Below, one piece after another: positions 6,897-43,437 of a stretch of 64,000 bases of DNA. The position numbers were made by a program, and so were the translations under genes. Source of the DNA: an uncultured Peptococcaceae bacterium. Its GTDB lineage: Bacteria; Bacillota; Dehalobacteriia; UBA4068; UBA4997. Each line of letters opens with the position of its first letter. Positions within the stretch are counted from its first letter, which is position 1. The stretch spans positions 3,995 through 67,994 of the forward strand of contig CAZMTO010000001.1 in the NCBI GenBank assembly GCA_964569265.1. Reading direction: 5' to 3'. The notes below the pieces were generated by a model. It did not search any database, was not told the DNA's origin, and saw only the letters and a list, made by a program, of their open reading frames with translations.

Positions 6897-8318
6897 ATGG
6901 AAGCAATGACATTTTCTGATTGGGTGAGCAAAATCGACGGCTGGATTTGGAATTGGCCAATGATGATACTGATTTTGGGTACCGGCCTGCTGTTAACCAT
7001 ACGCACCGGTTTTACACAGGTTTTTCACTTACCCAAGGCGCTGCGCTTTATGTTTAAAAACGAAGAAGACGGCGAAGGTGAGGTTACCAGCTTTGGTGCC
7101 CTGTGTACGGCACTTTCTGCCACCATTGGTACCGGTAATATTGTAGGTGTGGCCACAGCAATTTGTGCCGGCGGCCCGGGCGCTCTGTTCTGGATGTGGT
7201 TTGCGGCATTTTTAGGTATGGCTACCAAATATGCCGAAGGTCTGCTGGCTATTAAGTACCGCACCATAGACGAAACCGGCCACGTTTTGGGCGGCCCCTT
7301 TTATTACATAGAACGCGGTATGGGCAAAAACTGGCGCTGGCTGGCTAAAATGTTTGCCTTCTTTGGTGCTTCGGCCGGCGTGCTGGGCATTGGTACCGTA
7401 ACCCAGATAAACGGTATTGCCGGTGCGGTAGAACGTTTGTGCGACCCCAACAGGTCTAACATTGCTTTTACTATCGGTGAATACAGCTACACCTGGGCCA
7501 CCACCCTTACCGCTGTTATTGCAGCCGTATTGGTTGCTCTGGTAATTTTGGGCGGCATCAAGCGTATATCTTCTGTAGCAGAAAAAGTTGTACCGTTTAT
7601 GGCCGTATTTTACATCGTAGTTTGCGTAACTATCTTAATCAACAATGCTTCGGCTATCCCGATGGCATTCTCGCAGATCTTCCACGGTGCCTTTACCGGC
7701 ACGGCTGCTATGGGCGGTTTTGCCGGTGCTATGGTAAAGCAGGCTCTGCAAAACGGTATTGCCCGCGGTATCTTTTCTAACGAGGCCGGCTTAGGCTCGG
7801 CACCTATTGCCGCCGCTGCTGCTTCCACCAAGTCCTGCGCACGTCAGGGTCTGGTTTCTATGACCGGCGTATTTATCGATACCCTTATCATCTGCACCAT
7901 GACCGGCCTTACCATCGTTATCACCGGCGCATGGCATCAGGAAGGTATCACCGGTGTAGCCGTAACCTCTTACGCATTTAGCCAGGGTATGAGCTTTGCA
8001 CCGTTTATCGGTCAGGTATGTGTAACTTTAAGCTTGGCATTTTTTGCCTTTACCACCATTTTGGGCTGGGATTACTACGCCGAACGCTGCGTAGAATACC
8101 TTGTAAACGGCAATATGGGTATTGTTAAGGCTTACCGTTATCTGTGGATATTGGCCGTACTGGTTGGCCCCTTTTTGGCGCTGGATGTTGTTTGGAACAT
8201 TGCCGACGCGCTCAACGGCTGCATGGCATTCCCCAACCTTATTGCGCTGGTGGCATTGTCCGGTGTAGTTGCTAAGGAAACCAAAGAGTTCCATCAGAAT
8301 TTGGAGCTGCACAAGTAA
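6897..8318 (+). CDS. alanine/glycine:cation symporter (AGCS family)
   Basis: 473 aa with about 11 TM segments. The N-terminal WxWxxPMMILILGTGLLLTIRTGF and GTGNIVGVATAI blocks are typical of the sodium:alanine symporter family. Confidence 0.85.
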   Translation: MEAMTFSDWVSKIDGWIWNWPMMILILGTGLLLTIRTGFTQVFHLPKALRFMFKNEEDGEGEVTSFGALCTALSATIGTGNIVGVATAICAGGPGALFWMWFAAFLGMATKYAEGLLAIKYRTIDETGHVLGGPFYYIERGMGKNWRWLAKMFAFFGASAGVLGIGTVTQINGIAGAVERLCDPNRSNIAFTIGEYSYTWATTLTAVIAAVLVALVILGGIKRISSVAEKVVPFMAVFYIVVCVTILINNASAIPMAFSQIFHGAFTGTAAMGGFAGAMVKQALQNGIARGIFSNEAGLGSAPIAAAAASTKSCARQGLVSMTGVFIDTLIICTMTGLTIVITGAWHQEGITGVAVTSYAFSQGMSFAPFIGQVCVTLSLAFFAFTTILGWDYYAERCVEYLVNGNMGIVKAYRYLWILAVLVGPFLALDVVWNIADALNGCMAFPNLIALVALSGVVAKETKEFHQNLELHK

Positions 8319-8357
8319 TATAACAAGCCATGTTTAACAACTAAATAAAATAATCAA

Positions 8358-8392
8358 AATGCTGCCTGACTATTGGGCAGCATTTTTTTTGC
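8358..8392 (+). terminator. intrinsic terminator after the AGCS symporter
   Basis: AATGCTGCC/GGCAGCATT stem with a 9-nt loop, followed by TTTTTTTT. Confidence 0.8.
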
Positions 8393-8393
8393 T

Positions 8394-8885
8394 GTTTAAG
8401 CCGTCTAAAATCCTCTGTAAGCGTTTTTAGCTGCGCATATGACACAGACGTAAGCCGACACTGTTTAAACCGCTCAAAACGCCTCTAATCGCGTTTAAGA
8501 GCAAAGCACCTGCCTATGCAGCCGCCCATATTGTTTTACACGTGACCAGATATCATACATCTGTAAAAACATCAAAAGACATTTGTCTTTACACGGCAAA
8601 TATTTTGACCTGTAAGCCGTCTAAAACCGCCTGTAACGGGTTTTAGCCCACCAATGGGTATACCCGTTAGGGCAGGGCGCTTAAAACCCCTTAAAACGGC
8701 TTTTTGACAGCACCTCTTTAAAGTTTATCCGTCAGGACAGAGCTTGTACGCCACAGGCCGGGCAAATTTTTGCCGTGTAAGGGTGCTAAAAGCCTTTGTG
8801 AGCGCATATAATATGCCAAAGGATATCCCACTAAGGGGGTGGTGCTTACGACGGCTCAAAACGGCTTAAATCGCGTTTGCCCTCA
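8394..8885. repeat. cluster of at least 5 imperfect-palindromic short repeats (core ...GCCGTCTAAAAyC..CTGTAAgCG..TTTTAGC / GCTCAAAACGnCT.TAATCGCGTTT)
   Basis: Copies at about 8394-8433, 8447-8502, 8598-8649, 8772-8807 and 8849-8883. Each can fold as a CTAAAAC...GTTTTAG hairpin. There is no coding potential. Confidence 0.55.
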
Positions 8886-9019
8886 GGCGTGCATCGGCAG
8901 AGGCAAAAACCGCGGTAGCCAAGGCCACTGCTGCCCGGCACGCCAGCCGCCGCCGCATTTTTACCCAAAACCGCTGCCCCACAAAATTTGTACCTATTAT
9001 AATTGGTGTGCCGCCTGTT

Positions 9020-9672
9020 AAAACGTGTTTCTTCCTATTATAAATAGGCACTAAATTACAGCTTTTTTGCATTACGCCAAAACAGCGTCAAATTACGCAG
9101 GCAAATTGCTGGGCTGCGCCGGCGGTATGTTCGTTGGGCACGAACAAAATAACCGTGTTTCTACCTATTATAAATAGGCTGTAAAAAGCAGGTTTTTTTG
9201 TCCACGGCAAGCAGCCTGCGTTTATTGACAGTTTTTTTGGCTGTGCTGCAAATTTTATTCCTATTATATAAGCAGCGTTTGTTGGGTTTAAGCTGGCAGC
9301 CGATGCTAAAGGGGCGCCGTATTTAAACGTGTTTCTTCCTATTATAAATACACATTTATTTTGCCGTTTTGTATGTACGTCATTTCTTCCTATTAAAATT
9401 AGCTGCCAAATAAGCAGCAAACAGCCGCAGCCGCAGCGCACACTGCCCGGCAGGTAGCGCAGCCCCCGGTTGGCCGTACCACGGGCAAGTATTCTACCTA
9501 TTAAAGGAACGGCCAACTTGCAGCCCAAATGTATAATCGCGGCATTTTTGGCGGTCGGCAATCGTCGTTTCTTCCTATTAAAGAATTGCAAACAGTTAAA
9601 ACCGGGCGTTTAAATGTTTCTTCCTATTATAAAAGTGGTTTACACATTTATTCCTATTATAAAAAAGAAAAA
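9020..9672 (+). repeat. irregular array of about 9 direct repeats with consensus (GT)GTTTCTTCCTATTATAAA(TAGGC)
   Basis: Copies start near 9023, 9152, 9250, 9325, 9381, 9491, 9566, 9612 and 9644, all in the same orientation. Spacings are 129, 98, 75, 56, 110, 75, 46 and 32 nt. The first two copies contain a CCTAT-N5-ATAGG inverted repeat. ORF 9088..9591 is an artefact of this array. Confidence 0.7.
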
Positions 9673-9898
9673 AATTTTATTCACGTGTTTTCAGTTTTTT
9701 TGCATACGGCATTTAGGTGCCTGCAAGCAAGCTAAATGGGCATATATCCACATTTGGACACCCTGTATTAAATTGCACCGCGTTATATAGGGCTATTTGG
9801 CGAATTAAGGCATAACCTGACAAATGGGCCACAACAAAAGTAGCGTATATTTATACAAAAATACTGCATTAAACCCAAAAATCGTATGCAAAAATTGC

Positions 9899-9927
9899 TT
9901 GACAATCGACGAAAAATTAGGTACTAT
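9899..9927 (+). promoter_or_regulatory. sigma-70 promoter TTGACA-17-TACTAT for transporter copy 1
   Basis: TTGACA at 9899-9904, a 17-nt spacer, and TACTAT at 9922-9927. Confidence 0.6.
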
Positions 9928-10255
9928 TAACTTGATCGTATCGCAAACCTTTGCGCTGAGACGATTTGGCAGAAAAGCTTGTTGGCTGCAATGGCCAGCA
10001 GAAGCCCCGCCACCCAAAAAACCAATCGGTTTGCAGAGCATTTGGGCAAGGGGTATCTCGCCTACAGGCAGCCGGCATGGTCGTCCGCAAGCCAAGCCCG
10101 GGTATCAGGCGGGCAACAGCAGGCAAAGCCGATCAAGCCACGGCCCATCAACAGCAATTATTTTTTTATTTTTAGATTAGGCTGTGGATTGGTTGGGCAG
10201 AGCAAAGTTAAACGGCACGATACAAAAAAATCAAAAAAGAATCGAGGTTGCACTT
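9928..10255 (+). ncRNA. long 5-prime leader (about 320 nt) of transporter copy 1, a candidate cis-regulatory RNA of unknown riboswitch class
   Basis: Blockwise conserved with the leader of copy 2 (CTGAGACGA, GTTGGCTGCAA, CC(A)6CC..GGTTT.CAGAGCATTTGGG, CCTACAGGCAG.CGGC, TCGTCCGCA, CAGCAATTATTTTTTATTTT, TAGGCTGTGG..TTGGGCAG). Indels break any shared reading frame. Confidence 0.45.
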
Positions 10256-11689
10256 ATGAAAGACAAAAAGATCGTTAAGCTTATCACAATTGTTCTTTTC
10301 GTAGCGCTGTGTGCTTGGACGTTTACGTCTCTTTCCGGCATTACTCCTCCTGACGCCGCTGCTCTGGGCGGGGAAGAATCCGAGGCTTATGTAACTGCAT
10401 TGGCCGAATACGAGGATGCTTATCAGCACCAAACAGCACTTTTGACCTTGGGCGTTCTGGTTACCATCGCATTCGTATTTATTACTGAATCGTTCCCGAT
10501 CGCTCTGGCCGCAATGGTTATCCCCTGTTACTACTCTGTATCCGGCATTATGGGCTGGAAGAGCGCGTTCTCCGGTTTGATTGACTCCTCCGTACTTCTG
10601 TTCGGTGGTATGTTTATCGTAGGCGGCGCAATGTTCCAGACCGGCTTGGCTCAGAAGATCGGCCTTTCCTGCGTAAAGATCGCAGCAGGTTCTGAAACCA
10701 AGTTGCAGTTGGTTATCATGATCGTAACCGGCGCTCTGTCCTCTTGCTTGTCCAACACCGGTACTGTTGCAGTATTGCTGCCTGTTTGCTTGGGTATTGC
10801 TGATTCCGCCGGCATGAGCCGCGCTAAACTGTTGATGCCTCTGGCAATTATGGCTTCTTCCGGTGGTATGATCACCGTAGCCGGTACTCCTCCGAATATG
10901 TCCGCAAATGCTACCCTGGATATGGTTGGCTTGGCACTCGGCTTCTTCGACTTTGCCTGGTACGGCATCCCGGTATCTATCGCTTCTATCCTGTATGTAA
11001 TGCTCATTGGTAACAAGCTCATCCCCAACCGTAAATCTGATATCGTTGTTGAGGACGAAGAAGAAGGTAAAGTATACGATCCTAAGAAACAGATCATCGC
11101 CGGTGCAGTACTTATCGTATGTATCATCGGTATGGTAATCTCCGACACCATCGGTATTCCGCTGCAGGTTATCGCTATCATCGGCGGTATCACTTGTGTA
11201 TTCACCGGTTGTATGACCGATAAGGAAGCTTACGAGTCCATCGACTGGACCACCATCTTCCTGTTTGCAGGTGCTATCGGTTTGGCAAATGCAATGCAGT
11301 CCACCGGCGCAGGCGAATTGCTCTCCACCAAGGTTGTTGGTGTTCTGGGCGGTTCTCCCAACCCCTACGTTCTGTTGATCGTACTGTTCCTGCTGGCCGG
11401 CGGTCTTACTCAGTTTATGTCTAACACCGCTGCTGCTGCTCTGCTGTGCCCCATCGGCTTGTCCATCGCTCAGTCTCTGGGCGCTGACCCGACGGCTGTT
11501 GTACTGTCCATCGGTTTTGCTTGCTCCGCAGCATATGTAACTCCTGTAGCAACTCCTCCGAACACCATGGTATTCGGCCCTGCAGGTTTAACCTTTATGG
11601 ACTTTGTAAAAGTTGGTTTGCCGCTGTTCGTTATCGCATTTATCCTGGCAGTAGTAATCGTACCGATCGTATGGCCCTTCTTCCCGTGA
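10256..11689 (+). CDS. ion-transporter (ArsB/NhaD/CitMHS) superfamily permease, paralog 1
   Basis: 477 aa polytopic membrane protein with two hairpin-like GTPPN motifs (AGTPPNMSA, ATPPNTMVF). The start is at MKDKKIVKL, which has RBS GAGGT and is 72 nt inside ORF 10184..11689. It is about 85% identical to the downstream copy. Confidence 0.7.
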   Translation: MKDKKIVKLITIVLFVALCAWTFTSLSGITPPDAAALGGEESEAYVTALAEYEDAYQHQTALLTLGVLVTIAFVFITESFPIALAAMVIPCYYSVSGIMGWKSAFSGLIDSSVLLFGGMFIVGGAMFQTGLAQKIGLSCVKIAAGSETKLQLVIMIVTGALSSCLSNTGTVAVLLPVCLGIADSAGMSRAKLLMPLAIMASSGGMITVAGTPPNMSANATLDMVGLALGFFDFAWYGIPVSIASILYVMLIGNKLIPNRKSDIVVEDEEEGKVYDPKKQIIAGAVLIVCIIGMVISDTIGIPLQVIAIIGGITCVFTGCMTDKEAYESIDWTTIFLFAGAIGLANAMQSTGAGELLSTKVVGVLGGSPNPYVLLIVLFLLAGGLTQFMSNTAAAALLCPIGLSIAQSLGADPTAVVLSIGFACSAAYVTPVATPPNTMVFGPAGLTFMDFVKVGLPLFVIAFILAVVIVPIVWPFFP

Positions 11690-11740
11690 TAAAGCGCGTG
11701 TGGTAACGCAAGCTAAAACATAACTTAATTCAAAACCTTA

Positions 11741-11776
11741 AATACCCTCTGCTTAGGCAGGGGGTATTTTTTTGTG
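11741..11776 (+). terminator. intrinsic terminator after transporter copy 1
   Basis: TACCCTCTGC/GCAGGGGGTA stem followed by TTTTTTT. Confidence 0.75.
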
Positions 11777-12080
11777 CTGCTTTTGCCGGCGGCGTTTTTA
11801 CCCAGCAATTTGCTATGCCATATTATAATCAGTTACATTTGTGCCAAAATGTGCCGCAAAAATAAATTTTATAAAAAAATTTTATACACAAAATTTTTCG
11901 GGAATTTTTTCTGCAAAAAATGCCAAACTAAAAATTGCCCCAAAGCTTTATTAAACAGGCATTTGTCGAATTTTTGACACCTGCCGAAAATGTCGTTTGG
12001 GCGCCCCGGCAAGTATGCATAATTCTGCATTTATATACTAATATTTTGCATTAAACTAACAAGCCTATACAAAAATCTGC

Positions 12081-12109
12081 TTGACAATTATAAAAAAATA
12101 AGTTAACAT
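12081..12109 (+). promoter_or_regulatory. sigma-70 promoter TTGACA-17-TAACAT for transporter copy 2
   Basis: TTGACA at 12081-12086, a 17-nt spacer, and TAACAT at 12104-12109. The upstream context TAtaCAAAAATcTGCTTGACAAT is shared with the copy 1 promoter. Confidence 0.55.
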
Positions 12110-12451
12110 CAAAATTGTCGTGACAAAGGCTTATGTTCTGAGACGAATTTTGCGACTAAAAAACGCTGTTGGCTGCAAAGGATAGCAGGCACCTAACCCC
12201 AAAAAACCCACCCGGTTTACAGAGCATTTGGGAATTTGGTTCCTCACCTACAGGCAGTCGGCGAATTCGTCCGCAGGCCGCACCGGGGTTATTAGCCGGC
12301 AGGCGGCTGCAATGCCAAACAAACCACAACCCTTTTACAGCAATTATTTTTTATTTTACTGACTTATAGGCTGTGGGCGCTTGGGCAGTTCAAAAGGCTG
12401 CGCCGCGAACATCAAAAGAAAAGAATCTAAAAAAAGAATCGAGGTTGCACA
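12110..12451 (+). ncRNA. long 5-prime leader (about 340 nt) of transporter copy 2, homologous to the copy 1 leader
   Basis: Same conserved blocks as 9928-10255. It also ends in a U-rich tract (CAGCAATTATTTTTTATTTT) before the last roughly 90 nt and the RBS. Confidence 0.45.
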
Positions 12452-13891
12452 ATGAAAGACAAGAGAATTGTTAAGCTTATTACAGTTGTTCTTTTCCTGG
12501 CGCTGTGTGCTTGGACTTACACGTCCCTCTCCGGCATCACTGCACCCGACGCTGCTGCTCTGGGCGGGGAAGAGTCCGAGGCTTATGTAACTGCATTAGC
12601 CGAATACGAGGATGCTTATCAGCACCAAACCGCACTTTTAACTTTGGGTGTTTTGGTAGTAATTGCATTTGTATTTATTACTGAATCGTTCCCGATCGCT
12701 CTGGCTGCAATGGCCATCCCCTGTTACTACGCTGTTTCCGGCATTATGCCTTGGAAGTCCGCATTCAGTGGCTTGATCGACTCCTCCGTACTTCTGTTCG
12801 GCGGTATGTTTATCGTAGGCGGTGCAATGTTCCAGACCGGTTTGGCCCAGAAGATCGGCCTTTCCTGCGTAAAGATCGCTGCTGGTTCTGAAACCAAGTT
12901 GCAGATCGTTATCATGGTAGTAACCGGCGCTATGTCCGCGTTCCTGTCTAACACCGGTACTGTTGCAGTATTGCTGCCTGTTTGCTTGGGTATTGCTGAT
13001 TCTGCCGGCATGAGCCGCGCTAAGCTGTTGATGCCCCTGGCAATTATGGCTTCTTCCGGTGGTATGATCACCATGGCAGGTACTCCTCCGAATATGTCTG
13101 CTGCTGCTACCTTGCAGATGGCTGATATTCCGATCGGTTTCTTCGACTTTATCTGGTTCGGTCTGCCGATTTCCATCGTTTCTATTCTGTACGTAATGAC
13201 CATTGGTAACAAGCTAATCCCCAACCGTCAGTCTGACGTTGTTGTTGAGGACGAAGAAGAAGGCAAAGTATACGATCCCAAGAAGCAGATCATCGCCGGT
13301 TTTGTTCTGGCTGTATGTATCGTTGGTATGGCTGCTTCCGATGCTATTGGCATCCCGCTGCAGGTTATCGCTATCATCGGCGGTATCACTTGTGTATTCA
13401 CCGGTTGTATGACCGATAAGGAAGCTTACGAGTCCATCGACTGGACCACCATCTTCCTGTTTGCAGGTGCTATCGGTTTGGCAAATGCAATGCAGTCCAC
13501 CGGCGCAGGCGAATTGCTCTCCACCAAGGTTGTTGGTGTTCTGGGCGGTTCTCCCAACCCCTACGTTCTGTTGATCGTACTGTTCCTGCTGGCCGGCGGT
13601 CTTACTCAGTTTATGTCTAACACCGCTGCTGCTGCTCTGCTGTGCCCCATCGGCTTGTCCATCGCTCAGTCTCTGGGCGCTGACCCGACGGCTGTTGTAC
13701 TGTCCATCGGTTTTGCTTGCTCCGCAGCATATGTAACTCCTGTAGCAACTCCTCCGAACACCATGGTATTCGGCCCTGCAGGTTTAACCTTTATGGACTT
13801 TGTAAAAGTTGGTTTGCCGCTGTTCCTTATCACCGGCGTTCTGGCTTTGGTAGTTGTACCGATTGTATGGCCTTTCTTCCCGGGTGCTTAA
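12452..13891 (+). CDS. ion-transporter (ArsB/NhaD/CitMHS) superfamily permease, paralog 2
   Basis: 479 aa, collinear with paralog 1 (MKDKRIVKLITVVLF...), with RBS GAGGT. Confidence 0.75.
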   Translation: MKDKRIVKLITVVLFLALCAWTYTSLSGITAPDAAALGGEESEAYVTALAEYEDAYQHQTALLTLGVLVVIAFVFITESFPIALAAMAIPCYYAVSGIMPWKSAFSGLIDSSVLLFGGMFIVGGAMFQTGLAQKIGLSCVKIAAGSETKLQIVIMVVTGAMSAFLSNTGTVAVLLPVCLGIADSAGMSRAKLLMPLAIMASSGGMITMAGTPPNMSAAATLQMADIPIGFFDFIWFGLPISIVSILYVMTIGNKLIPNRQSDVVVEDEEEGKVYDPKKQIIAGFVLAVCIVGMAASDAIGIPLQVIAIIGGITCVFTGCMTDKEAYESIDWTTIFLFAGAIGLANAMQSTGAGELLSTKVVGVLGGSPNPYVLLIVLFLLAGGLTQFMSNTAAAALLCPIGLSIAQSLGADPTAVVLSIGFACSAAYVTPVATPPNTMVFGPAGLTFMDFVKVGLPLFLITGVLALVVVPIVWPFFPGA

Positions 13892-31316: not shown

Positions 31317-32255
31317 CTAAAAGGTGGAGTTAGGTAACAAAATAGCAATAATCCTCTCCAACTCCTCGTCGCCGTAATATTCCAGGGTAATTTTGCCGTG
31401 CGATTTTTTGCCGCCGGCTTTACCGATACGCTGCACGTTAACCTTGGTTTGCAGTTTATCGCGCAGCTTTTCTTCTACGGCTTGCAGCAGCAAATCTTCG
31501 GGCGGCGCCGGAGAAGGCGGCGTCAGCTTTAGCAGCTTTTTTTTGGCCAATTTGTGCAGCTCTTTGGGGTCTTTGGCCAGCGCTTCGGTTTGCCGCACCG
31601 ATAATCCCTCGTCCTGCACACGTTCGGCCAGCAGCAGTCTATCTTCGGCATTTTCCAACATCAACAGGGCACGCCCGTGGCCGGCGGTTAAATTGCCCTT
31701 AACTATCAGCGCCTGAATTTCGTCCGGCAGGGCCAAAAGCCGCAGGGTGTTAGCCACATACACACGTGATTTTCCCAGTTTTTCGGCCAGTTGCGCCTGT
31801 GTATAGCCGTAATTGTCCAAAAGCTCGCGGTAAGATGCTGCCTCCTCAAGGGGGTTAAGCTCCTGCCGCTGAATATTTTCAATCAACGCAACAGCCAACG
31901 TAACCTCGTCGGCCAGCTCTTTTACAATCGCCGGAACCGTCTTTAAACCGGCCAGCTTAGCCGCTCTGTAACGTCTTTCGCCGGCCACTATTTCAAAATT
32001 GCCGCTTTTGCCAACGGGGCGCACCAAAATAGGCTGCAAAACGCCCTGCTCTTTAATGCTTGCGGCCAGCTCGTTAAGCTTACCCTCGTCAAAACGGCGG
32101 CGCGGCTGATCCGGATTAGCAATGATTTTATCTAATTTTAGCTGCATAACGCGCTCGCCCGGTGTTTCCGTCTGCTGCACCTGCTGTATCGGTGCCATAT
32201 CACCAAACAAAGCGTTTACGCCGCTGCCCAAACCTTTTTTACCCATAGTGTTCAC
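31317..32255 (-). CDS. parB: chromosome partitioning protein ParB/Spo0J
   Basis: ParB N-terminal box (GERRYRAA), an HTH (TQAQLAEKLGKSRVYVANTLRLL), and its position after parA. Confidence 0.9.
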   Translation of the reverse strand: MNTMGKKGLGSGVNALFGDMAPIQQVQQTETPGERVMQLKLDKIIANPDQPRRRFDEGKLNELAASIKEQGVLQPILVRPVGKSGNFEIVAGERRYRAAKLAGLKTVPAIVKELADEVTLAVALIENIQRQELNPLEEAASYRELLDNYGYTQAQLAEKLGKSRVYVANTLRLLALPDEIQALIVKGNLTAGHGRALLMLENAEDRLLLAERVQDEGLSVRQTEALAKDPKELHKLAKKKLLKLTPPSPAPPEDLLLQAVEEKLRDKLQTKVNVQRIGKAGGKKSHGKITLEYYGDEELERIIAILLPNSTF

Positions 32256-32299
32256 TCCTGAATACTAAATATTCTTACAGATTTTATGTATTATTATGC

Positions 32300-33064
32300 T
32301 TATTCGGTGCGCTCTATAACCAGCCGGGCAAGCTGTTGATAGGTTTCGGCACCTTTGCTTTTAGGGTCGTAATAGCTTATCGGCATACCATGGCTTGGAG
32401 CTTCGGACAGGCGAACGTTACGCGGAATAAACACGTTAAAAACCAAATCGCCAAAATGCTCTTTTACCTGATCTACCACCTGCGCGGCCAAATTTACCCG
32501 CGAATCAAACATAGTTATAAGCACGCCCAAAATTTTTAACTGCGGGTTTAACCCCTGACGCACCTTCATAAAGCTGGAAAACAACTGCTGCAAGCCCTCT
32601 AAAGCGTAATATTCGGCCTGCACCGGTATAATTATACTGTCGGCCGCGGTAAGCGCGTTAATGGTAAGCAGCCCTAAAGAAGGCGGACAATCTATCAGCA
32701 GGTAATCGAACGCCGGCGCTACGTATTCCAGCCCCATAAGCAGGCGGCGTTCGCGCTGTTCCATAGTTACCAGCTCAATTTCGGCACCGGCCAGGTTAAT
32801 ATCTGCCGGCAAAACATAAAGCTCGCCAAATTCGGTCGGCAAAATAACATCTTCGGCCTTATCATCATCTACCAGCATAGTATAAATACTGCCGTTAAGC
32901 GTTCGGCGGTTTATGCCAAGGCCGCTGGTTGCATTGCCCTGCGGGTCTAAATCTACCACCAGCACTTTTTTGCCGGCCCGCACCAGCGCATCTGCCAAAT
33001 TGATGACCGTAGTGGTTTTAGCCACACCGCCCTTTTGATTGGTAACAGCAATAATTTGTCCCAT
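32300..33064 (-). CDS. parA: chromosome partitioning ATPase ParA/Soj
   Basis: Deviant Walker A KGGVAKTTT, 254 aa. Confidence 0.92.
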   Translation of the reverse strand: MGQIIAVTNQKGGVAKTTTVINLADALVRAGKKVLVVDLDPQGNATSGLGINRRTLNGSIYTMLVDDDKAEDVILPTEFGELYVLPADINLAGAEIELVTMEQRERRLLMGLEYVAPAFDYLLIDCPPSLGLLTINALTAADSIIIPVQAEYYALEGLQQLFSSFMKVRQGLNPQLKILGVLITMFDSRVNLAAQVVDQVKEHFGDLVFNVFIPRNVRLSEAPSHGMPISYYDPKSKGAETYQQLARLVIERTE

Positions 33065-33096
33065 AACGGCACCCTCTTTTTCCCAAAATCTACAAA

Positions 33097-33936
33097 TTAA
33101 AAAGGCTTACGTTTTATAGCACCACTGTTGCGCGGCAGTTCGCGGCGGCAGGGCACCACCTTTTTTATTTCTATTACAGCGCGGGCTTCGCCGTTGGGCA
33201 GCTTATATTCGGTAACACCTTCTAAGCGCCCACCCAGTTGAAATATCGCGTTTTCGGCAGCGTCTAATTCTTCCTTATAATTAGCACCTTTCATCGCCAA
33301 AAAGCTGCCGCCCATTTTTACCATCGGCATACAATATTCGGTAAGCACATTTAACGGTGCCACGGCGCGTGCCGTCGCAAAGTCAAATTTTTCGCGGTAA
33401 ATTACGCGGTGGCCGGCTTCTTCGGCCCTAAAGCGGCCAATAGCAATATTATTTACGTTGATATTGCCGCAGGCAAATTTAACAAATTCATAGCGCTTGT
33501 TCAGTGCCTCGATAACCGCAATTTTGTGCGCAGGGTGTGTAATTGCCAGCGGAATAGCCGGCATACCGGCGCCGGTGCCAACGTCCATAAGCATTTTGCG
33601 CGGGTAGTTTTCAATAAACGGCGACAACATCAGAGAATCTATAATATGCTTAATTGCAAATTCCTCAGCATCGGTGATGGCCGTAAGGTTAATGTTGGCA
33701 TTACTGCGCACTACCATTTCATAATAATCGGTAAGCTGCTCCAACATTTGTTCGTCAAAATCTACGCCGGTTTTGCCGATATGCTTTTGCACCACCTTAG
33801 CAAAGGTATCGCGGTCTATTTTTACGCCGTCTAAAGTAAGGTTTTCGTCCTGCGTGCCGCCTCTGTCTTCACCAAAAGTGTAGCTCGCCGGGGTTTTAAC
33901 CTGCTCGGTGCGGTTTTTCTTAAAAAAATCAAACAT
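33097..33936 (-). CDS. rsmG: 16S rRNA (guanine527-N7)-methyltransferase RsmG (GidB)
   Basis: SAM motif DVGTGAGMPAIPLAI and NLTAITD. It carries a roughly 40-aa N-terminal extension relative to typical RsmG, so the start is uncertain. Confidence 0.85.
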   Translation of the reverse strand: MFDFFKKNRTEQVKTPASYTFGEDRGGTQDENLTLDGVKIDRDTFAKVVQKHIGKTGVDFDEQMLEQLTDYYEMVVRSNANINLTAITDAEEFAIKHIIDSLMLSPFIENYPRKMLMDVGTGAGMPAIPLAITHPAHKIAVIEALNKRYEFVKFACGNINVNNIAIGRFRAEEAGHRVIYREKFDFATARAVAPLNVLTEYCMPMVKMGGSFLAMKGANYKEELDAAENAIFQLGGRLEGVTEYKLPNGEARAVIEIKKVVPCRRELPRNSGAIKRKPF

Positions 33937-34009: not shown

Positions 34010-35926
34010 TTATGCTTTAACTTCCTGCTTTTGGCGCAGCCAAATCAACAAAACAGCAATATCCGCAGGAGAAACGCCGGTTATGCGCCCGGCCTGCCCC
34101 AGATTATCCGGTTTAACCTCGTTTAATTTTTGCCGTGCCTCCAGGCTGAGGCCCTCTATTTGCAGATAATCAACGTTTTGCGGCAAACGCTTGCCTTCTA
34201 ACTGCCTGAATTTTTCTACCTGAATTTGCTGCTTGGCAATGTAGCCGGCATATTTGGCGTCAACATCCAACTGTTCGGCAACATCGGCCACCACCGGTGT
34301 AAGGTTAAGCAGACGGCAAACCTGCGCATAGGTTATACCGGGACGGCACAAAAGCTCCCAGGCGCGTATACCGCCGTTAAGCTGCGGCATATTAAGCTCT
34401 TGCAGCAGCTCAGCCAAGCCGGGGGTATCGTTTTTAATTACTGCGGCCTGCAAATCGGCTTTTTCGGCAACAACCGCCGCCATTTTAGCCGACAACCGGT
34501 CAACATCGGCCTGCGGCACCAAACCAAGCCCGTGCGCCTTAGCCGTCAGACGTTGGTCGGCATTATCGTTGCGCAGCAGCAGGCGGTATTCCGCCAAAGA
34601 TGTAAACATACGGTAGGGCTCGGTAACACCCTTAGTCACCAGATCATCGATCAGCACGCCCAAATATGCTTCATCACGGCCCAGCAGCAGCGGCGGCCTC
34701 CCCAACAGGCTAAGCGCCGCATTGGCACCGGCATACAGGCCTTGCCCTGCGGCTTCTTCGTAGCCCGATGTACCGTTTATCTGGCCGGCGGTATAAAGCC
34801 CCGGCACCGTTTTTACCTCTAAGGTGCGCTTTAATTGCGTTGGGTATACAAAATCGTATTCTATGGCGTAAGCCGGGCGAATTATTTTGACGTTTTGCAT
34901 ACCGGGTATGGTGCGCATAAAGGCATACTGTACATCTTCGGGCAGGCTGGTAGACATACCCTGCACGTAATATTCGTTGGTATTAAGCCCTTCCGGCTCT
35001 AAAAACAACTGATGATGCGGATTATTGGGAAAACGCCGCAGTTTATCTTCTATCGATGGGCAATAGCGCGGCCCAATACCCTTAATCTGGCCGGAATACA
35101 GCGGGCATCTGTCCATATTATCTAAAATGGCCTTGTGTGTGTCGGCGTTGGTGTAAGTAAGCCAGCAACTGATGTTAGGACGCGGTGCTGCCAACTGCGG
35201 CTTGCTGTGCGAAAAATACAGCTCGCCCTCGTCACCTTTTTGCTCGCTCATACAGCTAAAGTCCAGCGTATCACGGTCTACACGCGCCGGGGTGCCGGTT
35301 TTAAACCGCCCCAGCTTTAAACCCAGCTTTTGCAGGCTATCTGACAAATAAGCTGCCGGTGGGTAGCCTGCCGGGCCGGACGGATAAGCGCAACTGCCCA
35401 TAATAACGCTGCCCTTTAAATAGGTGCCGCTTGTTATAACCAGCCTTTGGCATTTATAAACCGCGCCGGTTCTAAGGCGTATGCCGCTTACAGCACCGTC
35501 GGTTGTTAAAATATCAGTAACCTCGCCCTGCTTAATATCCAGCCCAGGTGTTTGCTGCAAATAGCTAAGCATAGCCTGTTGATACGCCTTTTTATCTATT
35601 TGGGCACGCAGAGCCTGCACTGCCGCGCCTTTGCTGGTATTAAGCCGCCGTATCTGAATTTGCGTTTGGTCGGTTATTTTGCCCATAGCACCGCCCATGG
35701 CGTCAATTTCTCGCACAATAACACCCTTGGCCGGCCCACCTATAGATGGATTGCACGGCGCCATAGCCACACTGTCCATAGACAGCGTTACCAGCAGTGT
35801 GCTTACACCAAGGCGCGCTGCCGCCAAAGCAGCTTCGCAGCCGGCGTGCCCGGCACCAATAACGGCTACATCATATTTGCCTGCAACAAAAATATCGCGG
35901 TCATTTTTTTCTGATAATTCTGTCAC
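34010..35926 (-). CDS. mnmG: tRNA uridine 5-carboxymethylaminomethyl modification enzyme MnmG (GidA)
   Basis: FAD motif YDVAVIGAGHAGCEAALAAARLG, 638 aa. Confidence 0.95.
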   Translation of the reverse strand: MTELSEKNDRDIFVAGKYDVAVIGAGHAGCEAALAAARLGVSTLLVTLSMDSVAMAPCNPSIGGPAKGVIVREIDAMGGAMGKITDQTQIQIRRLNTSKGAAVQALRAQIDKKAYQQAMLSYLQQTPGLDIKQGEVTDILTTDGAVSGIRLRTGAVYKCQRLVITSGTYLKGSVIMGSCAYPSGPAGYPPAAYLSDSLQKLGLKLGRFKTGTPARVDRDTLDFSCMSEQKGDEGELYFSHSKPQLAAPRPNISCWLTYTNADTHKAILDNMDRCPLYSGQIKGIGPRYCPSIEDKLRRFPNNPHHQLFLEPEGLNTNEYYVQGMSTSLPEDVQYAFMRTIPGMQNVKIIRPAYAIEYDFVYPTQLKRTLEVKTVPGLYTAGQINGTSGYEEAAGQGLYAGANAALSLLGRPPLLLGRDEAYLGVLIDDLVTKGVTEPYRMFTSLAEYRLLLRNDNADQRLTAKAHGLGLVPQADVDRLSAKMAAVVAEKADLQAAVIKNDTPGLAELLQELNMPQLNGGIRAWELLCRPGITYAQVCRLLNLTPVVADVAEQLDVDAKYAGYIAKQQIQVEKFRQLEGKRLPQNVDYLQIEGLSLEARQKLNEVKPDNLGQAGRITGVSPADIAVLLIWLRQKQEVKA

Positions 35927-35944
35927 CTTACGCCTCCATACTAA

Positions 35945-35960
35945 TGTTTCATGTGAAACA
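35945..35960. promoter_or_regulatory. parS-like site (TGTTTCATGTGAAACA, one mismatch)
   Basis: 15 of 16 positions match parS. It lies between mnmE and mnmG. Confidence 0.65.
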
Positions 35961-36075
35961 TTTTACCACAGCAACGCCCCATTTGCAATATCTGCACCAC
36001 GCCCCGCATAATAAAAATGCAGACCATACACAGCCTGCATTTTTGTAATATTTTGTAATATTTTTGCAAATATGC

Positions 36076-37452
36076 TTATTTACCCAAACAAAACCGAGAA
36101 AAAACCCGGTCAATAATATCATCGGCAGCAGCCTCACCGCTGATTTCGGCCAAAGCCTGCCACGCCGTTTGTAAATCAACGCTAAGCATATCCGCATCAA
36201 AATATTCGGTATGCGCGGCGGCATCCTGCATAGCACGGCGGGCGGTTAACAGTGCTGCCTGCTGGCGTTCGTTAAGCAAACAGGTAAGCGGCTCGCCACC
36301 GGAATTTTGCGCCAGCAAACCAACTATCTGCTGCTTCAGCTCGTCTAAGCCGCCGCCCTGCTTAGCCGATATTGTCAGCACACATATATGCGGTGCCTGC
36401 TGCTGTATGGCGACAAGCTGCCGCGCCTGCTCTGCCGGCGTACAAATATCCGCCTTGTTAAACAACACCAGCATTGGGCGGGCGGCGTTATCCTTTATAA
36501 TGTCCAGCCAAAAATCATCTATGGGGCGGGCAACATCAAGCAGCAACAACACCAAATCGGCCTGTGCCAAAACCCGTCGGCTGCGCTCAATGCCGGCCTG
36601 TTCCACAATATCATCGGTTTGGCGTATACCGGCGGTGTCCACCAGCTTCAGCGGCCAACCGTTAAGCGTATAGTATTCTTCTACGGTGTCGCGGGTGGTG
36701 CCGGCAACCTGCGTAACTATCGAACGTTCTACCTGCAAAAGGGCGTTAAGCAGGGTAGATTTACCGGCATTTGCCGGCCCGATAATGGCGGTAAGCACAC
36801 CGTCGCGCAGCAGCCTGCCCTCTTTGGCGCGGCTTAGCAGCTCATCTACCACCGCCTGCACATTAGCCAGCTTATCGGCCAGCCCAGCACCCGGCGCAGT
36901 GTCCTCGTGTTCCTCCGGGTAATCTATCAACAGCTCCAGCTCGGCCAGCATATCCAGCAGTTTATCTGCCGCCCGGGCAATTTGCTGCTTTAAGCTGCCT
37001 GCCAACTGCTGTTCGGCCGCCTTTAAACCTTCGGCAGTTTTAGCTTCTATAATATCTATCACCGCTTCGGCCTGGTCTAAAGACATTTTACCGTTAATAA
37101 ATGCCCGTGATGTAAATTCTCCGGGGCCGGCAGGGCACGCCCCCGCCGCAAACACCGCCGACAGAATTTCCCGGCAAACAACATAACCGCCGTGACACTG
37201 AATTTCTGCCACATCTTCACCGGTATAAGAATTAGGCCCGGGCATATACACAGCCAGCGCTTCATCTAAAATATCACCGGCAGCACTGTACACACGGCCA
37301 AGGTGCATATAGCGCGGCTTAAAGCTTTGGCCGCTGTGCGGCTTAAACACTGCCTGCAATACCGGCAGTGCATCGGTGCCGCTAATACGTATAACCCCAA
37401 TACCGCCGGTGCCCGGCGGCGTAGCTATGGCGGCAACAGTTTGGCCCAGCAT
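36076..37452 (-). CDS. mnmE: tRNA modification GTPase MnmE (TrmE)
   Basis: G1 motif GPANAGKSTLLNAL and a C-terminal CxGK (CLGK), 458 aa. Confidence 0.95.
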   Translation of the reverse strand: MLGQTVAAIATPPGTGGIGVIRISGTDALPVLQAVFKPHSGQSFKPRYMHLGRVYSAAGDILDEALAVYMPGPNSYTGEDVAEIQCHGGYVVCREILSAVFAAGACPAGPGEFTSRAFINGKMSLDQAEAVIDIIEAKTAEGLKAAEQQLAGSLKQQIARAADKLLDMLAELELLIDYPEEHEDTAPGAGLADKLANVQAVVDELLSRAKEGRLLRDGVLTAIIGPANAGKSTLLNALLQVERSIVTQVAGTTRDTVEEYYTLNGWPLKLVDTAGIRQTDDIVEQAGIERSRRVLAQADLVLLLLDVARPIDDFWLDIIKDNAARPMLVLFNKADICTPAEQARQLVAIQQQAPHICVLTISAKQGGGLDELKQQIVGLLAQNSGGEPLTCLLNERQQAALLTARRAMQDAAAHTEYFDADMLSVDLQTAWQALAEISGEAAADDIIDRVFSRFCLGK

Positions 37453-37505
37453 AAAATTCCCCCTATAAAAAGGCTGCCCCCAAGGAGCAGCCCAATTTGT
37501 TTTAT

Positions 37506-38129
37506 TTAGCGTGCCCGCTTAATAATAATTTTGCGGTACGGTTCTTCGCCTACGCTTACAGTCTTAATATCCTCATCATCCTGCAAGGCAATGTGGATAA
37601 TACGACGTTCGTGCGGGCTCATCGGCTCTAAAATAACGTCGCGGTCGGTGCGGCGTGCTTTATCAGCCATTTTTTTAGCCAGGTTGGTAAGTGTTCTTTC
37701 ACGCTCGGCACGGTAGTTTTCTACATCCAGCACAATGCGGGTTTTATCTTCAAACTGGCGGTTTACCGATAAATTGGTAAGATACTGCAAAGCATCAAGA
37801 GTTTCTCCGCGGCGGCCGATAATAGCACCCAAACCCTTGCCTCTAAAGGTTATCCAGATGATACCGTCTTTTTCTTCTACCTCGTGGGTAGGAATAACCT
37901 TTAAGCTTTTAAAAATAGGCTGCAAAAAGGCAATGGCATCACGTGCCGGGTCGTTTTCATTATAAGATACACGCACAACTGCATCTTTGCCGCCAAACAG
38001 ACCCAAAACACCCTTAGCGCCGGGGTCAATAACCTCTACCTCAACATCATTAAAACTGCAACCAAGCTCGGCTACGGCTAATTCTACAGCGGCATCCACA
38101 GTTTTTGCGGATTTTTCGATCACTTTCAT
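37506..38129 (-). CDS. jag: Jag/KhpB RNA-binding protein (KH + R3H domains)
   Basis: Conserved jag position after yidC. RBS GAGGAGG lies 7 nt upstream of MKVIEKS. Confidence 0.85.
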   Translation of the reverse strand: MKVIEKSAKTVDAAVELAVAELGCSFNDVEVEVIDPGAKGVLGLFGGKDAVVRVSYNENDPARDAIAFLQPIFKSLKVIPTHEVEEKDGIIWITFRGKGLGAIIGRRGETLDALQYLTNLSVNRQFEDKTRIVLDVENYRAERERTLTNLAKKMADKARRTDRDVILEPMSPHERRIIHIALQDDEDIKTVSVGEEPYRKIIIKRAR

Positions 38130-38171
38130 TATGTTACCTCCTCTGATTGCTTGTACAAGCAATGCAGGTAA

Positions 38172-39014
38172 TTACTTTCTGGTTCTGCGGCGGTGCTGCT
38201 TAGCTGCGGCAGGCTTAGCCTCAGCATCGGCTGCCTTATCTTCGGCGGCTTTTGCTTCTTTCAATTCTTTATTATGGCGGCGCTGCTCGCGGTTAGCTCT
38301 AACCTGCGCCTTAGAATTTTTGTTGGCCTGCTGCTCTAATTTTAAACGTTTTTCTTCGGTAAGCTCCTGCTGGCGTTTTTCCATACGGGCTTTTACGGGT
38401 TTGGTAACAACAATTTGCTGCAAAATACCAATAGCCGTAACAGAAAGCCAGTAAATACACAAAAACGCAGGGAACTTAGCAGCCATCCAGGCCATCATTG
38501 CCGGCATGGCAATTACCATATACCACTGCATAAACTGCTTTGGTCTGCCACTTATTACCAAACTTTGTATAAGTGTGCTGGCACCTACCAAAAATACCAT
38601 TATATAAGTGGTATCCACCTGCGCCAAATCAGGTATCCAAAAAAAGCGGTAATATTCCGGGTTAGAAGGTACAAAGTTGCTTAAGCCCCTGTATAAGCCG
38701 ATCAAAATAGGGAACTGAATAAGCATAGGCAAGCAGCCGGCCATAGGGTTAACACCGTAATCCTGATACAGCGTCATAGTTTTTTGCTGCATAACCTCGG
38801 GGTTGTTGGCATACTTGGCTCTTATTTCTTCTAACTGCGGCTGAATTTGCTGCATAGCAATGGTAGACTGCATTTGCTTAAAGTTTAGCGGCAGCAGCAA
38901 CATACGTATTACCACGGCAATTACGATAATTGCCACAGCATAGCTGGGAAACCCCAAACTCATAGTTATCTGAAAAAGTTTTTCCAGACAACCCGAAACA
39001 AATTCATCAAACAT
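38172..39014 (-). CDS. yidC: membrane protein insertase YidC/SpoIIIJ
   Basis: 280 aa Oxa1-family short form with five TM segments and a Lys-rich C-terminal tail. Confidence 0.88.
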   Translation of the reverse strand: MFDEFVSGCLEKLFQITMSLGFPSYAVAIIVIAVVIRMLLLPLNFKQMQSTIAMQQIQPQLEEIRAKYANNPEVMQQKTMTLYQDYGVNPMAGCLPMLIQFPILIGLYRGLSNFVPSNPEYYRFFWIPDLAQVDTTYIMVFLVGASTLIQSLVISGRPKQFMQWYMVIAMPAMMAWMAAKFPAFLCIYWLSVTAIGILQQIVVTKPVKARMEKRQQELTEEKRLKLEQQANKNSKAQVRANREQRRHNKELKEAKAAEDKAADAEAKPAAAKQHRRRTRK

Positions 39015-39079
39015 TAGTAAATTCCTTTTTATGTGTTACACTTTTAATGTAGCGATACTTTCAATTTAATAAAAAACAG

Positions 39080-39328
39080 CTATTTAACAGGGTCATACCC
39101 ACCTTTGTTAAAGGGATGACACCTTAATATGCGCCGAAAGGCCATCCACCCGCCCTTTAGCGGGCCATATTTGGTTATGGCATGTATGGCATAGGCCGAA
39201 CAGGTAGGATAAAACCTGCACCTTGCACCAATATACGGCGAAATAAACCACTGATAGCATTTTATCAGCAGTATCATTAAAAACTGTATAAGCCGCAACG
39301 GCGCGGCGATAATTTTTTTTAAGGGCAT
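39080..39328 (-). CDS. yidD: membrane protein insertion efficiency factor YidD
   Basis: [15 protein letters not shown]...HPF signature. Confidence 0.9.
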
Positions 39329-39364
39329 AGCAATTACCCCAAAGCCAAAAGCCGCTTTAAAGTG

Positions 39365-39709
39365 TTATCTGGGCTTTAGCCCGGCGGCATTTACCGCTTT
39401 TTTTATACGGTTGCGAAGGCTCTCCACTGTTTGCTCCTTCGCGGCCTGCCTTGCTATAAGTACATAATCATACCCCGGCACAAAAGCCGCAAGCTCTAAT
39501 CGGCAGGCTTCTCTCAGCCTTCTTTTTACAAGGTTGCGCTCCACGGCTTTGCCTATCTTTTTAGATACCGAAAAGCCTATGCGCATACCCTTTTTGGCAT
39601 ACGATTGCCTGTAGCATAACACAAAGGCCGGATTTTTCAGCGACTTTCCGCTTTTATATACCCGCCGAAAATCCTGCCTTCTTTTTAAACGGTTTTCCTG
39701 CTTTAACAT
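39365..39709 (-). CDS. rnpA: ribonuclease P protein component
   Basis: 114 aa basic protein containing LKRRQDFRRVYKSGKS, following rpmH. Confidence 0.9.
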   Translation of the reverse strand: MLKQENRLKRRQDFRRVYKSGKSLKNPAFVLCYRQSYAKKGMRIGFSVSKKIGKAVERNLVKRRLREACRLELAAFVPGYDYVLIARQAAKEQTVESLRNRIKKAVNAAGLKPR

Positions 39710-39754
39710 AGCTTACACTTCTCTATTAAACTGATTATAGCGGTTTGCCGGCAA

Positions 39755-39889
39755 TTAAGCAGACAAAACCTTGCGGCCCTTTGCACGGCGGCGGGCTAAA
39801 ACCTTGCGGCCGTTTTTGCTGCTCATTCTGGCCAAAAAGCCATGAACTCTTTTATGCACGCGGTTTTTCGGCTGATAAGTTCTTTTCAT
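39755..39889 (-). CDS. rpmH: 50S ribosomal protein L34
   Basis: Minus-strand translation [44 protein letters not shown] (44 aa). It is missed by the 60-aa ORF track. RBS GGAGGG is present, and an alternative ATG lies 3 nt upstream. Confidence 0.92.
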
Positions 39890-39892
39890 CAT

Positions 39893-40214
39893 CAATCCCT
39901 CCATTCTTTATGATGATCTTCCATAATTATCCCTGATATTGTGACTAAGCCCGGCTGTTGTTTGCGGCACATTTGCCATATTTGCCCACACTTGGCCATA
40001 GTAACAGGTAAATTATATCATAATCAAAAATATGCTTTTTGTCAAGACCATATTAAAAAAAGATAATTAAATTAGTTTTAACTTTTCCACAAAAATGCAT
40101 TGCAAAAGTGGATAATTTTTGGTATTATAAATAAGCAATTGATTTTGGGGCGGCATTTTGTCCCCAAAGTGGGGATTGTTTCCCCAATTTTGTTAATATT
40201 TACAGGTGATTATT
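39893..40214. promoter_or_regulatory. oriC upstream part (rpmH-dnaA intergenic) with DnaA boxes
   Basis: TTTTCCACA at 40084-40092 and AGTGGATAA (reverse) at 40106-40114, plus weaker boxes at 39968-39990. It includes the dnaA promoter region. Confidence 0.7.
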
Positions 40215-41564: not shown

Positions 41565-41586
41565 GCTGTTAACACCAAAATTTAAA

Positions 41587-41627
41587 AAAGCTTTTCATCT
41601 GGAAAACAGGTGAAAAGCTTTTTTTGT
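41587..41627 (+). terminator. intrinsic terminator after dnaA
   Basis: AAAAGCTTTTCA/TGAAAAGCTTTT 12-bp stem with a 13-nt loop, followed by TTTTT. Confidence 0.8.
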
Positions 41628-41631
41628 GCAG

Positions 41632-41988
41632 CAAAACAGTGTAAATATTAAAGGTTGTATTTTTTGGGGATATATAGTATAATAACCCTACAACGTTTTT
41701 GGTTATCCACAGAGTTTTTAACAATTCTGGAAAACTTTTAAACTTTACACGTTGATTTTTTGGGGATTATAAAATTCGGTGTTGGATAATTGATTTTTTT
41801 CAACAAAATGTTTATAATTTTTAACAGGCTTTTCCCAGCCGTCAAAGCCGCACGGTTTCTGGTTTTCCAGAGGTTTTAAACATTTTTAACAACACCTAAT
41901 ACTACTACTGCTAAACTTTATAATAATAATAATATATGCAGCGTAAATTTTACTTATTACCAATTACACAATTTTTAAGGAGACCGCT
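41632..41988. promoter_or_regulatory. oriC downstream part (dnaA-dnaN intergenic) with a perfect DnaA box and an AT-rich DUE
   Basis: TTATCCACA at 41703-41711, gTTGGATAA at 41781-41789, TTTTCCAGA at 41871, and an AT-rich tract at 41895-41940 (ACTACTACTGCTAAACTTTATAATAATAATAATATATG). Confidence 0.75.
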
Positions 41989-43098: not shown

Positions 43099-43127
43099 TT
43101 AAAATATAATAGCGTTGGTGTAAAATT

Positions 43128-43349: not shown

Positions 43350-43437
43350 AAAAAGTAGGCGTACAAGCTTTGTGCGCCTATTTGTTTCGGTAAAAATATA
43401 ATGTTTTACATAATATTTGGCAGAGGAGGAAGAAAGG

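Follow-up and report, generated by a model that had tools for sequence, protein, structure and literature searches.

A permease-linked array of ten same-orientation motif copies in an uncultured Peptococcaceae bacterium: a putative cluster of regulator sites

In the present study, we analyzed a repeat array in a stretch of 64,000 nucleotides from an uncultured Peptococcaceae bacterium (GenBank assembly GCA_964569265.1, contig CAZMTO010000001.1, positions 3,995 to 67,994; referred to as the window), where a preliminary description had noticed a short recurrent motif. The array was located in a gene-free tract (~8397-10255), bordered on the left by a Na+/alanine symporter gene (6897-8318, + strand; terminator at 8356-8396) and on the right by a gene for an SLC13/CitMHS-type permease (paralog 1; 10256..11689, + strand), which was followed by a second permease gene (paralog 2; 12452-13891, + strand; 91% identical to paralog 1). 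Ten copies of a core sequence, TTCT(T/A)CCTATTA(T/A)A, all pointing in the same direction on the + strand, lay ahead of the transporter gene at 8986-9663. The promoter of permease paralog 1 was of the sigma-70 type (TTGACA-17-TACTAT; 9899..9927, + strand) and conserved in relatives, in agreement with the transporter promoter assigned previously to position 9899; this was the only sigma-70-like site in a consensus scan of 8200-10400, for which 3.7 were expected from shuffled sequences.

The 12-nt core TTCTTCCTATTA, when up to two mismatches were allowed, gave 15 matches in the window versus 4.26 expected, and none of 100 dinucleotide shuffles reached 15. Within the array, core matches started on the + strand at 8988, 9029, 9159, 9255, 9333, 9384, 9492, 9569, 9618, and 9648: ten matches, compared with ~0.05 expected per 700 bp (Poisson P(≥10) ~1e-20). 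Essentially no motif copies were found outside the array tract, either in the window or in the flanks of related loci. The start-to-start distances (41, 130, 96, 78, 51, 108, 77, 49, and 30 bp) were irregular, with spacers of ~12 to 112 bp, and the information content within the window was 2 bits over ~10 core positions versus 0.2-0.5 bits in the flanks. The same-orientation clustering and variable spacing in the preliminary description were, therefore, confirmed, with starts 30-130 bp apart; on the other hand, its count of nine copies was one short, because a further copy was present just before the start that it had given.

This additional copy (copy 1; 8986..9003, ATTTGTACCTATTATAAT, with the core match TTGTACCTATTA at 8988) was degenerate. 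Copies 2 (9027..9044), 5 (9331..9348), and 9 (9616..9633) all consisted of the exact 18-mer GTTTCTTCCTATTATAAA, and its recurrence at 9027, 9331, and 9616 was not compatible with the progressive decay along the array that had been proposed. Copy 2 had a 23/23 identical ortholog (7593-7615) in a related locus, L161. A palindrome of the CCTAT-N5-ATAGG type, CCTATTATAAATAGG, occurred twice in the window: at 9034-9048 in copy 2 and at 9164-9178 in copy 3 (9157..9174; GTTTCTACCTATTATAAA), which corresponded to the inverted repeat ascribed previously to the first two full copies. Copy 4 was at 9253..9270 (TTTTATTCCTATTATATA) and copy 6 at 9382..9399 (ATTTCTTCCTATTAAAAT). Copy 7 (9490..9507; TATTCTACCTATTAAAGG) was placed between 12-nt inverted arms (9469-9480 and 9506-9517), its 3' end overlapping the right arm by 2 nt, and copy 8 (9567..9584; GTTTCTTCCTATTAAAGA) was of a TTCTT-N7-AAGAA subtype. 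Copy 10 (9646..9663; ATTTATTCCTATTATAAA) adjoined a conserved upstream module (see below) and is, therefore, probably the ancestral one. The window copies arose via local duplications of 30-130 bp: a repeat finder detected a 48-nt duplication family at 9021, 9151 (including copy 3), and 9325 with 77-83% identity, and Tandem Repeats Finder (TRF) reported a single tandem duplication with a period of 30 and 1.9 copies (9608-9664), of which copy 9 was in the first unit. The CAG-T tracts described between the copies were also real: three exact CAG-N-T6-G matches (9059, 9229, and 9692) versus 0.45 expected.

Since the 18-mer alone was uninformative when large collections were scanned (among the matches listed for viral contigs and GTDB genomes, all were single, either coding or by chance), relatives were gathered via homologs of the symporter and permease. 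Two loci (L001 and L003) were identical to the window with ten copies, and a third (L002), 98% identical over the tract, also had ten, two of them with a changed base. Seven copies, on the same strand, were present in a clade with a symporter of 93% identity (L161 and L208-213), and one plus five in L168 (symporter 91%), whereas one good copy was found in L165 (symporter 82%; locus inverted), one in L217 (permease 77%), and none in L163, L169, and L214 (symporter 84-86%). Copy number in the compared loci was, in other words, 10, 7, 6 (1+5), 1, or 0, with 6-10 copies in close relatives and one or none in more distant ones. Wherever present, the motif was located upstream of SLC13/CitMHS permease genes and on the permease strand, and this held in five lineages including a rearranged one.

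In the 93% clade, the equivalent 1.8-kb gap aligned with that of the window only at its ends and at the motif copies. Up to three copies per array in this clade were perfect or near-perfect palindromes, CCTATTA(T/A)AATAGG (CCTATTATAATAGG or CCTATTAAAATAGG), and none of the palindromes CCTATTATAAATAGG, CCTATTATAATAGG, and CCTATTAAAATAGG was found elsewhere in the 216 loci compared. L168 carried an extra permease paralog after the symporter, and the single copy there ended directly before the -35 element of a predicted promoter (ATGACA-18-CATAAT), while the five further copies preceded the next permease paralog. The single copy of L165, GTTTCTACCTATTATATA, was on the permease strand ~370 nt upstream of the permease ATG, and that of L217, CTTTTCCTATTAAAAATA, stood directly before an A7T4...TTTTCTGCA module, which also followed the last copy in the window (9668-9707), L161, and L168. 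L163 and L169 retained the permease promoter and leader without the motif; in L214, the motif was absent and the permease gene was absent from the contig. When four orthologous arrays were aligned, invariance across three lineages was seen at 56 of 72 motif columns (78%) versus 83 of 208 spacer columns (40%; Fisher p = 2.5e-8), a difference to be read with the caution that the aligner may anchor on repeats. A spacing of 41 bp recurred in related arrays; these spacings belonged to orthologous pairs and are, therefore, not independent.

The permease genes themselves showed rapid turnover in copy number (1, 2, or more paralogs), as seen in the window (10256-13891), L165 (600-4182), L168, L217, and L220. 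Within-genome pairs were 91% (window) and 96% (L165) identical and orthologs between lineages 63-80%, and, therefore, permeases were recently and independently duplicated or underwent gene conversion. Two further observations were made around these genes. Upstream of the permease region of L165 (4700-4950, - strand), there were approximately three tandem units of ~80 nt, each consisting of a terminator-like hairpin (AACCGGCTGCCCACAACGCAGTCGGTT) and a T-rich tail. In L219, one strain of a relative with a 70% identical permease, a large serine recombinase gene (7015-8434, - strand; Resolvase/Recombinase/Zn_ribbon_recom/DUF4368) stood where sister contigs carry a PALP gene downstream of the permease pair, which points to the insertion of a mobile element at this locus.

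The conserved module directly 3' of the last motif copy (AAAAAAATTTTATTCAC...CAGTTTTTTTGCATAC; 9668..9707, + strand) was also present in L161, L168, L208, and L217, and before paralog 2 in the window (~11866-11915). Its general form was AAAAAAATTTTAT(T/A)CAC ... TTTTT(T/C)TGCA(T/A)A, at ~200-280 nt upstream of permease promoters (8616-8655 in L161, 4635-4674 in L168, and ~300-345 in L217). Candidate roles for it are those of another protein-binding site, a stretch of curved DNA, or a weak alternative promoter. Downstream of the module, 9852-10253 was 69% identical to 12034-12450; therefore, the promoter and a leader of ~330 nt are common to both paralogs and lie outside the array.

This leader, a conserved and structured 5' region of the permease paralogs that adjoins the array without being part of it (9928-10255 and 12108-12454, + strand), was found in six relatives: L161 (8897-9222), L168 (4915-5237), L163 (7668-8006), L165 (2030-2385, - strand), L169 (2563-2955, - strand), and L217 (~560-900). 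An RNAalifold analysis of seven leader sequences from six loci predicted 39 pairs and showed compensatory changes at 23 of these; in the predicted fold, the invariant 5' segment GATCGTATCG paired with GGCACGATAC, which lies shortly before the AAAAAGAATCGAGGTTGCA ribosome-binding region. The leader matched no Rfam family. It is a candidate for an undescribed riboswitch or regulatory leader, and may be a more novel and more useful lead than the array.

Several other identities were considered for the array and rejected. The preliminary description had reported no open reading frame (ORF) in the tract; this was literally incorrect, since an ORF of 167 amino acids (9088-9591, - strand) ran across five motif copies as IIGRN repeats, and four consecutive array spacings were multiples of 3. 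However, the ORF had no Pfam family, a tblastx comparison with relatives found only the motif itself, and a 1-nt insertion after 9462 broke it in L002 (98.1% identical over the tract), where no gene was called; it was, therefore, judged not to be a gene. Short + strand peptides starting with (G/A)TG-TTT-CTT-CCT (MFLPII...) were, as read from the sequence, 9-58 amino acids long, not conserved, and without a ribosome-binding site. At gathering thresholds, no Rfam family matched, and relaxing the cutoff to E ≤5 gave nothing above noise in 8300-10300; the tract also contained no tRNAs. A blastx search for pseudogene remnants gave nothing significant in the window tract and weak collinear matches only in that of L161.

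Pfam scans covered 50 of the ~60 window ORFs of ≥90 amino acids (~14 mostly short ORFs were left out), and detected no cas, rep, plasmid-type par, integrase, transposase, or phage genes in these 64 kb of a 106-kb contig. An array of clustered regularly interspaced short palindromic repeats (CRISPR), already dismissed in the preliminary description, was rejected: neither repeat nor spacer length was constant, only 12-18 bp were conserved, TRF found nothing beyond the 1.9-copy duplication, and no cas gene was among the scanned ORFs. An iteron or centromere array would be expected beside an initiator or partition gene, on a mobile replicon, and with regular phased spacing, none of which was found at this locus as far as its ORFs were scanned. 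Only one DnaA box (8/9 match; TTATCCACA) was near the array, at 9744, and an oriC identity was rejected because oriC is at ~40 kb, judging from dnaA (40206-41564) and the skew switch. The suggestion of an insertion hotspot for miniature inverted-repeat transposable elements found no support in the window and the flanks of related loci: no unit bounded by terminal inverted repeats was seen, and no dispersed copies were found in these sequences.

No similarity was found by blastn between the locus and 50,697 phage and 72,556 plasmid records. The 18-mer had 38 single matches in viral contigs, most of them at a single homologous position within a coding sequence of one phage family, and at least 119 single matches in GTDB genome contigs, mainly coding (VSSYYK and EFLPIIKE) or by chance, with no arrays among the matches listed. 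A two-copy pattern scan yielded one match in viral and 34 in metagenome contigs, nearly all of which were regular tandem repeats of a different sort; the GTGTTTCTTCCTATTATA word was shared by a few pairs (L173, L178, L194, and L184), whose neighbours were unrelated and non-homologous. A literature search on the motif strings returned eukaryotic primer and barcode matches only.

The scanned neighbours in the window were core genes: glnS, the symporter, dapF, ilvBN, serS, parAB, rsmG, mnmGE, dnaA, and dnaN. The window contained the chromosomal origin (34010-44565; mnmG, mnmE, jag/khpB, yidC, rnpA, dnaA at 40206-41564, dnaN, and recF), with parB, parA, and rsmG at 31317-33936, a sign change in GC skew at ~40 kb, and DnaA boxes at 37592, 40083, 40107, and 41703. 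The array was ~31 kb from dnaA/oriC. The only regulator gene near the array was MntR/DtxR-like (2085-2459); nothing connected it to the motif, which was absent from its own upstream region, and a role as the cognate regulator would be speculative. In the 430-bp gap upstream of this gene, a run of approximately six DnaA-box-like words (1728-1880; TTTTCCACA twice, TTTTCCACC, TTTTCTACA, TTTTCTACC, and TTTTCAAC) may represent either DnaA boxes clustered away from oriC or the sites of another regulator. The left half of the gene-free tract (8397-8900) had repeated words of its own: GCCGTCTAAAAYC..CTGTAA..GTTTTTAGC at 8397 and 8613, and CTCAAAACG.CT..AATCGCGTTT at 8469 and 8851; the word CTTAAAACGGCT from this region was also conserved in L161 and L168. 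A long imperfect hairpin was predicted at 8590-8712 (z = -2.65 on the + strand and -3.75 on the - strand).

We propose that the array is a cluster of repeated putative sites for one dimeric DNA-binding protein that would regulate the permease genes, and that the cluster was amplified in this lineage; we assign a probability of approximately one half to this reading. Clustering, strand bias, the link to the permease genes, conservation, palindromy, and growth by duplication were observed in the sequences, whereas the binding of a protein, its nature, and whether it would raise or lower transcription are matters of inference. The motif is short, sharply bounded, intergenic, and upstream of a promoter, and was conserved while its surroundings diverged; its dyad symmetry and tandem half-sites fit an oligomeric DNA-binding protein. 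Sharp edges of 12-18 bp, a partial dyad, a link to the permease maintained through rearrangement and paralog turnover, conservation relative to the surroundings, and local multiplication together are what the recognition site of a DNA-binding protein would be expected to leave. Since the motif tracks permease genes, is conserved relative to the spacers, and is partly palindromic, the protein-binding array or multi-site operator that the preliminary description had listed among its possibilities is the one favoured by comparison.

The regulator would probably be a dimeric transcription factor with a full site of CCTATTA-(0/1)-TAATAGG and a half-site of TTCT(T/A)CCTATTA. The ancestral state was probably one site beside the A/T-tract module, 200-280 bp upstream of a sigma-A promoter, and, at one paralog of L168, the putative site immediately adjoins the -35 box. 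In the window lineage, this site may have been multiplied to 6-10 copies by the local duplications of 30-130 bp, copies being kept while spacers decayed. Many weak sites or half-sites would be likely to load several protein molecules cooperatively, and the outcome may be a sharper response of the permease promoter or buffering of the concentration of the free regulator; looping would also be possible.

Several points weigh against a regulator site cluster. The array is ~240-910 bp upstream of the promoter at 9899, which is far for classical bacterial activation or repression. No significant helical phasing was found by a Rayleigh test at 10.5 bp (R = 0.08 in the window alone; p = 0.10 for all arrays pooled), and no candidate binding protein was found at the locus, the MntR/DtxR-like gene being the only regulator gene nearby. 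The promoter and leader persist in L163 and L169 in the absence of the motif, which, therefore, is not required for basal expression. The possible anchoring of the aligner on repeats, as described above, is a further reservation.

The array may instead be a neutral relic, namely, debris of the repeated duplication and loss of permease paralogs with their upstream regions, in which copies persist through recency or gene conversion and the array has no function. The fast change in permease copy number (within-genome pairs of 91% and 96% identity), the 48-nt family and period-30 duplication in the window, and the differences in motif number among close relatives (10, 7, 6 (1+5), 1, and 0) are all as expected from such a history, and the weak blastx matches in the L161 tract were collinear and fell on the C-terminal part of a permease on the opposite strand (E = 0.28-5). 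However, the conserved block of 12-18 bp is sharply edged inside duplicates whose flanks diverged to randomness, conservation across orthologous arrays was double in motif columns compared with spacers, distant relatives retain a single copy, and the window tract had no significant pseudogene trace; a relic is, in our estimation, unlikely. The motif also resembles -10 elements (TATTAT, TATAAA, or TATAAT on the + strand, and TATAAT then AGGAAGAAAC on the - strand), and the array may accordingly consist of successive weak or alternative-sigma promoters, or form a 'promoter island' that traps RNA polymerase. The - strand carries TATAAT in seven of the ten copies, palindromic copies have it on both strands, the single L168 copy holds a perfect TATAAT ~150 nt upstream of a permease ATG, and, among the matches listed, many unrelated single 18-mer matches in other Firmicutes were in intergenic, promoter-like contexts. 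We regard this as less probable than a relic: the invariant part is CCTATTA rather than the -10 hexamer, TATAAT is disrupted in three window copies by the reading CCTATTAAA(A/G), no -35 element is conserved at 16-18 bp on either strand, the promoter at 9899 was the only one in 8200-10400 (fewer than in shuffles), and nothing lies downstream on the - strand to be expressed.

A more doubtful proposal is that the array serves as a rapidly expanding, origin-proximal sink: either a DNA titration locus for a metabolic regulator, or a - strand transcript with ten Shine-Dalgarno (SD)-like AGGAAG elements sponging an RNA-binding protein or ribosomes. To our knowledge, neither version has a described counterpart in Clostridia-like Firmicutes. 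The function of the repeat at the RNA level in general, with the tract transcribed and presenting ten SD-like UAAUAGGAAGAA elements on the - strand (a CsrB-like sponge for a GGA-binding protein or 30S) or CU-rich anti-SD elements on the + strand, is very unlikely. The - strand of 8970-9720 did fold better than all 20 shuffles (z = -2.69), some copies are in the loop of a flanking inverted repeat (e.g., 9469-9517), and the TTCTT-CCTATTA-AAGAA subtype could form a 5-bp stem with the core in a 7-nt loop; on the other hand, the + strand fold was unremarkable (z = -1.16), neither strand has a promoter or a convincing terminator flanking the array, GGA turns into GGU in TTCTACC copies, and the copy classes are structurally incompatible, since CCTAT-N5-ATAGG copies hold the core in a stem and other copies hold it in a loop. 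The absence of an Rfam match adds to this, and perfect DNA palindromes favour the recognition of duplex DNA. Least probable of all is that the array is a relic or active set of iterons, plasmid-type centromere repeats, or arm-type integrase or recombinase sites from a mobile or segregating replicon, including the decayed plasmid or phage iterons suggested in the preliminary description. In spite of the resemblance of short same-orientation repeats, some palindromic, to iteron and centromere arrays, the unstable copy number, and the origin-proximal position (~31 kb from dnaA), the spacing is irregular and not ~11 or 22 bp, the motif is unlike parS or DnaA boxes, and it stays with the permease genes even in the inverted locus. 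Moreover, the scanned ORFs included no gene of the rep, par-plasmid, integrase, transposase, or phage type, the scanned neighbours belong to the core chromosome, phage and plasmid collections gave no match, and the two-copy scans of viral and metagenome contigs returned unrelated tandem repeats and a few unrelated pairs.

As a regulator site cluster, the array most likely belongs to a known kind of feature, clustered binding sites upstream of a regulated transporter gene, while the motif itself appears to be undescribed, with no matching family. The local amplification to 6-10 copies over 0.3-0.7 kb, varying among close relatives, is unusual for bacteria. If this reading is correct, TTCTTCCTATTA / CCTATTATAATAGG would represent a putative binding motif of high information content for a regulator in an uncultured gut/rumen-type clade of Bacillota, and close relatives with 0, 1, 6, 7, and 10 sites would form a natural series. 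Such a series could show how site clusters grow by local duplication in bacteria, and the effect of extra sites on the response of a promoter. In practice, the array would be of limited use, the organism being uncultured.

Among known systems, CRISPR arrays are alike in having short same-orientation repeats with unique spacers in a gene-free tract, and differ from the present array, in which only 12-18 bp are conserved, there is no period and neither cas genes nor a leader, and growth is by local duplication. Plasmid iterons and centromeres (RK2 oriV, R1 parC, and pBtoxis tubC) consist of 7-12 copies of direct repeats of 12-22 bp, which bind one protein, are regularly phased, and are placed beside rep or par genes on a mobile replicon. 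The array shares the short direct repeats with them, but is spaced at 30-130 bp on the core chromosome with no adjoining rep or par gene. datA of E. coli is an origin-proximal, non-coding cluster of DnaA boxes that functions as a titration locus; the array is also an origin-proximal, non-coding site cluster that could buffer one protein, but its motif is not the DnaA box and is tied to the upstream region of one gene family. In Bacillus phage phi105, one repressor binds to six asymmetric 14-bp sites arranged as direct repeats with variable spacing. These operators are similar to the array in their non-palindromic, same-orientation sites and variable spacing, whereas the array has more copies, some of which are palindromic, and no phage or repressor gene or phage similarity. 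In B. subtilis, four weak 18-bp sites upstream of mneP are bound cooperatively by MntR (four dimers), which activates mneP, and this multi-site operator gives a cooperative, switch-like response (PMC11275975). The operators of mneP and mneS (PMC11275975) and the array have in common several weak copies of one sequence upstream of a transporter gene, with palindromic sites fitting a dimeric regulator. However, the four MntR sites are contiguous within 84 bp and overlap the -35 element, whereas ten putative sites with irregular gaps are spread here over 680 bp at 240-910 bp from the promoter. Most copies in the array are half-sites in direct orientation, and its likeness to the MntR operators is one of arrangement.

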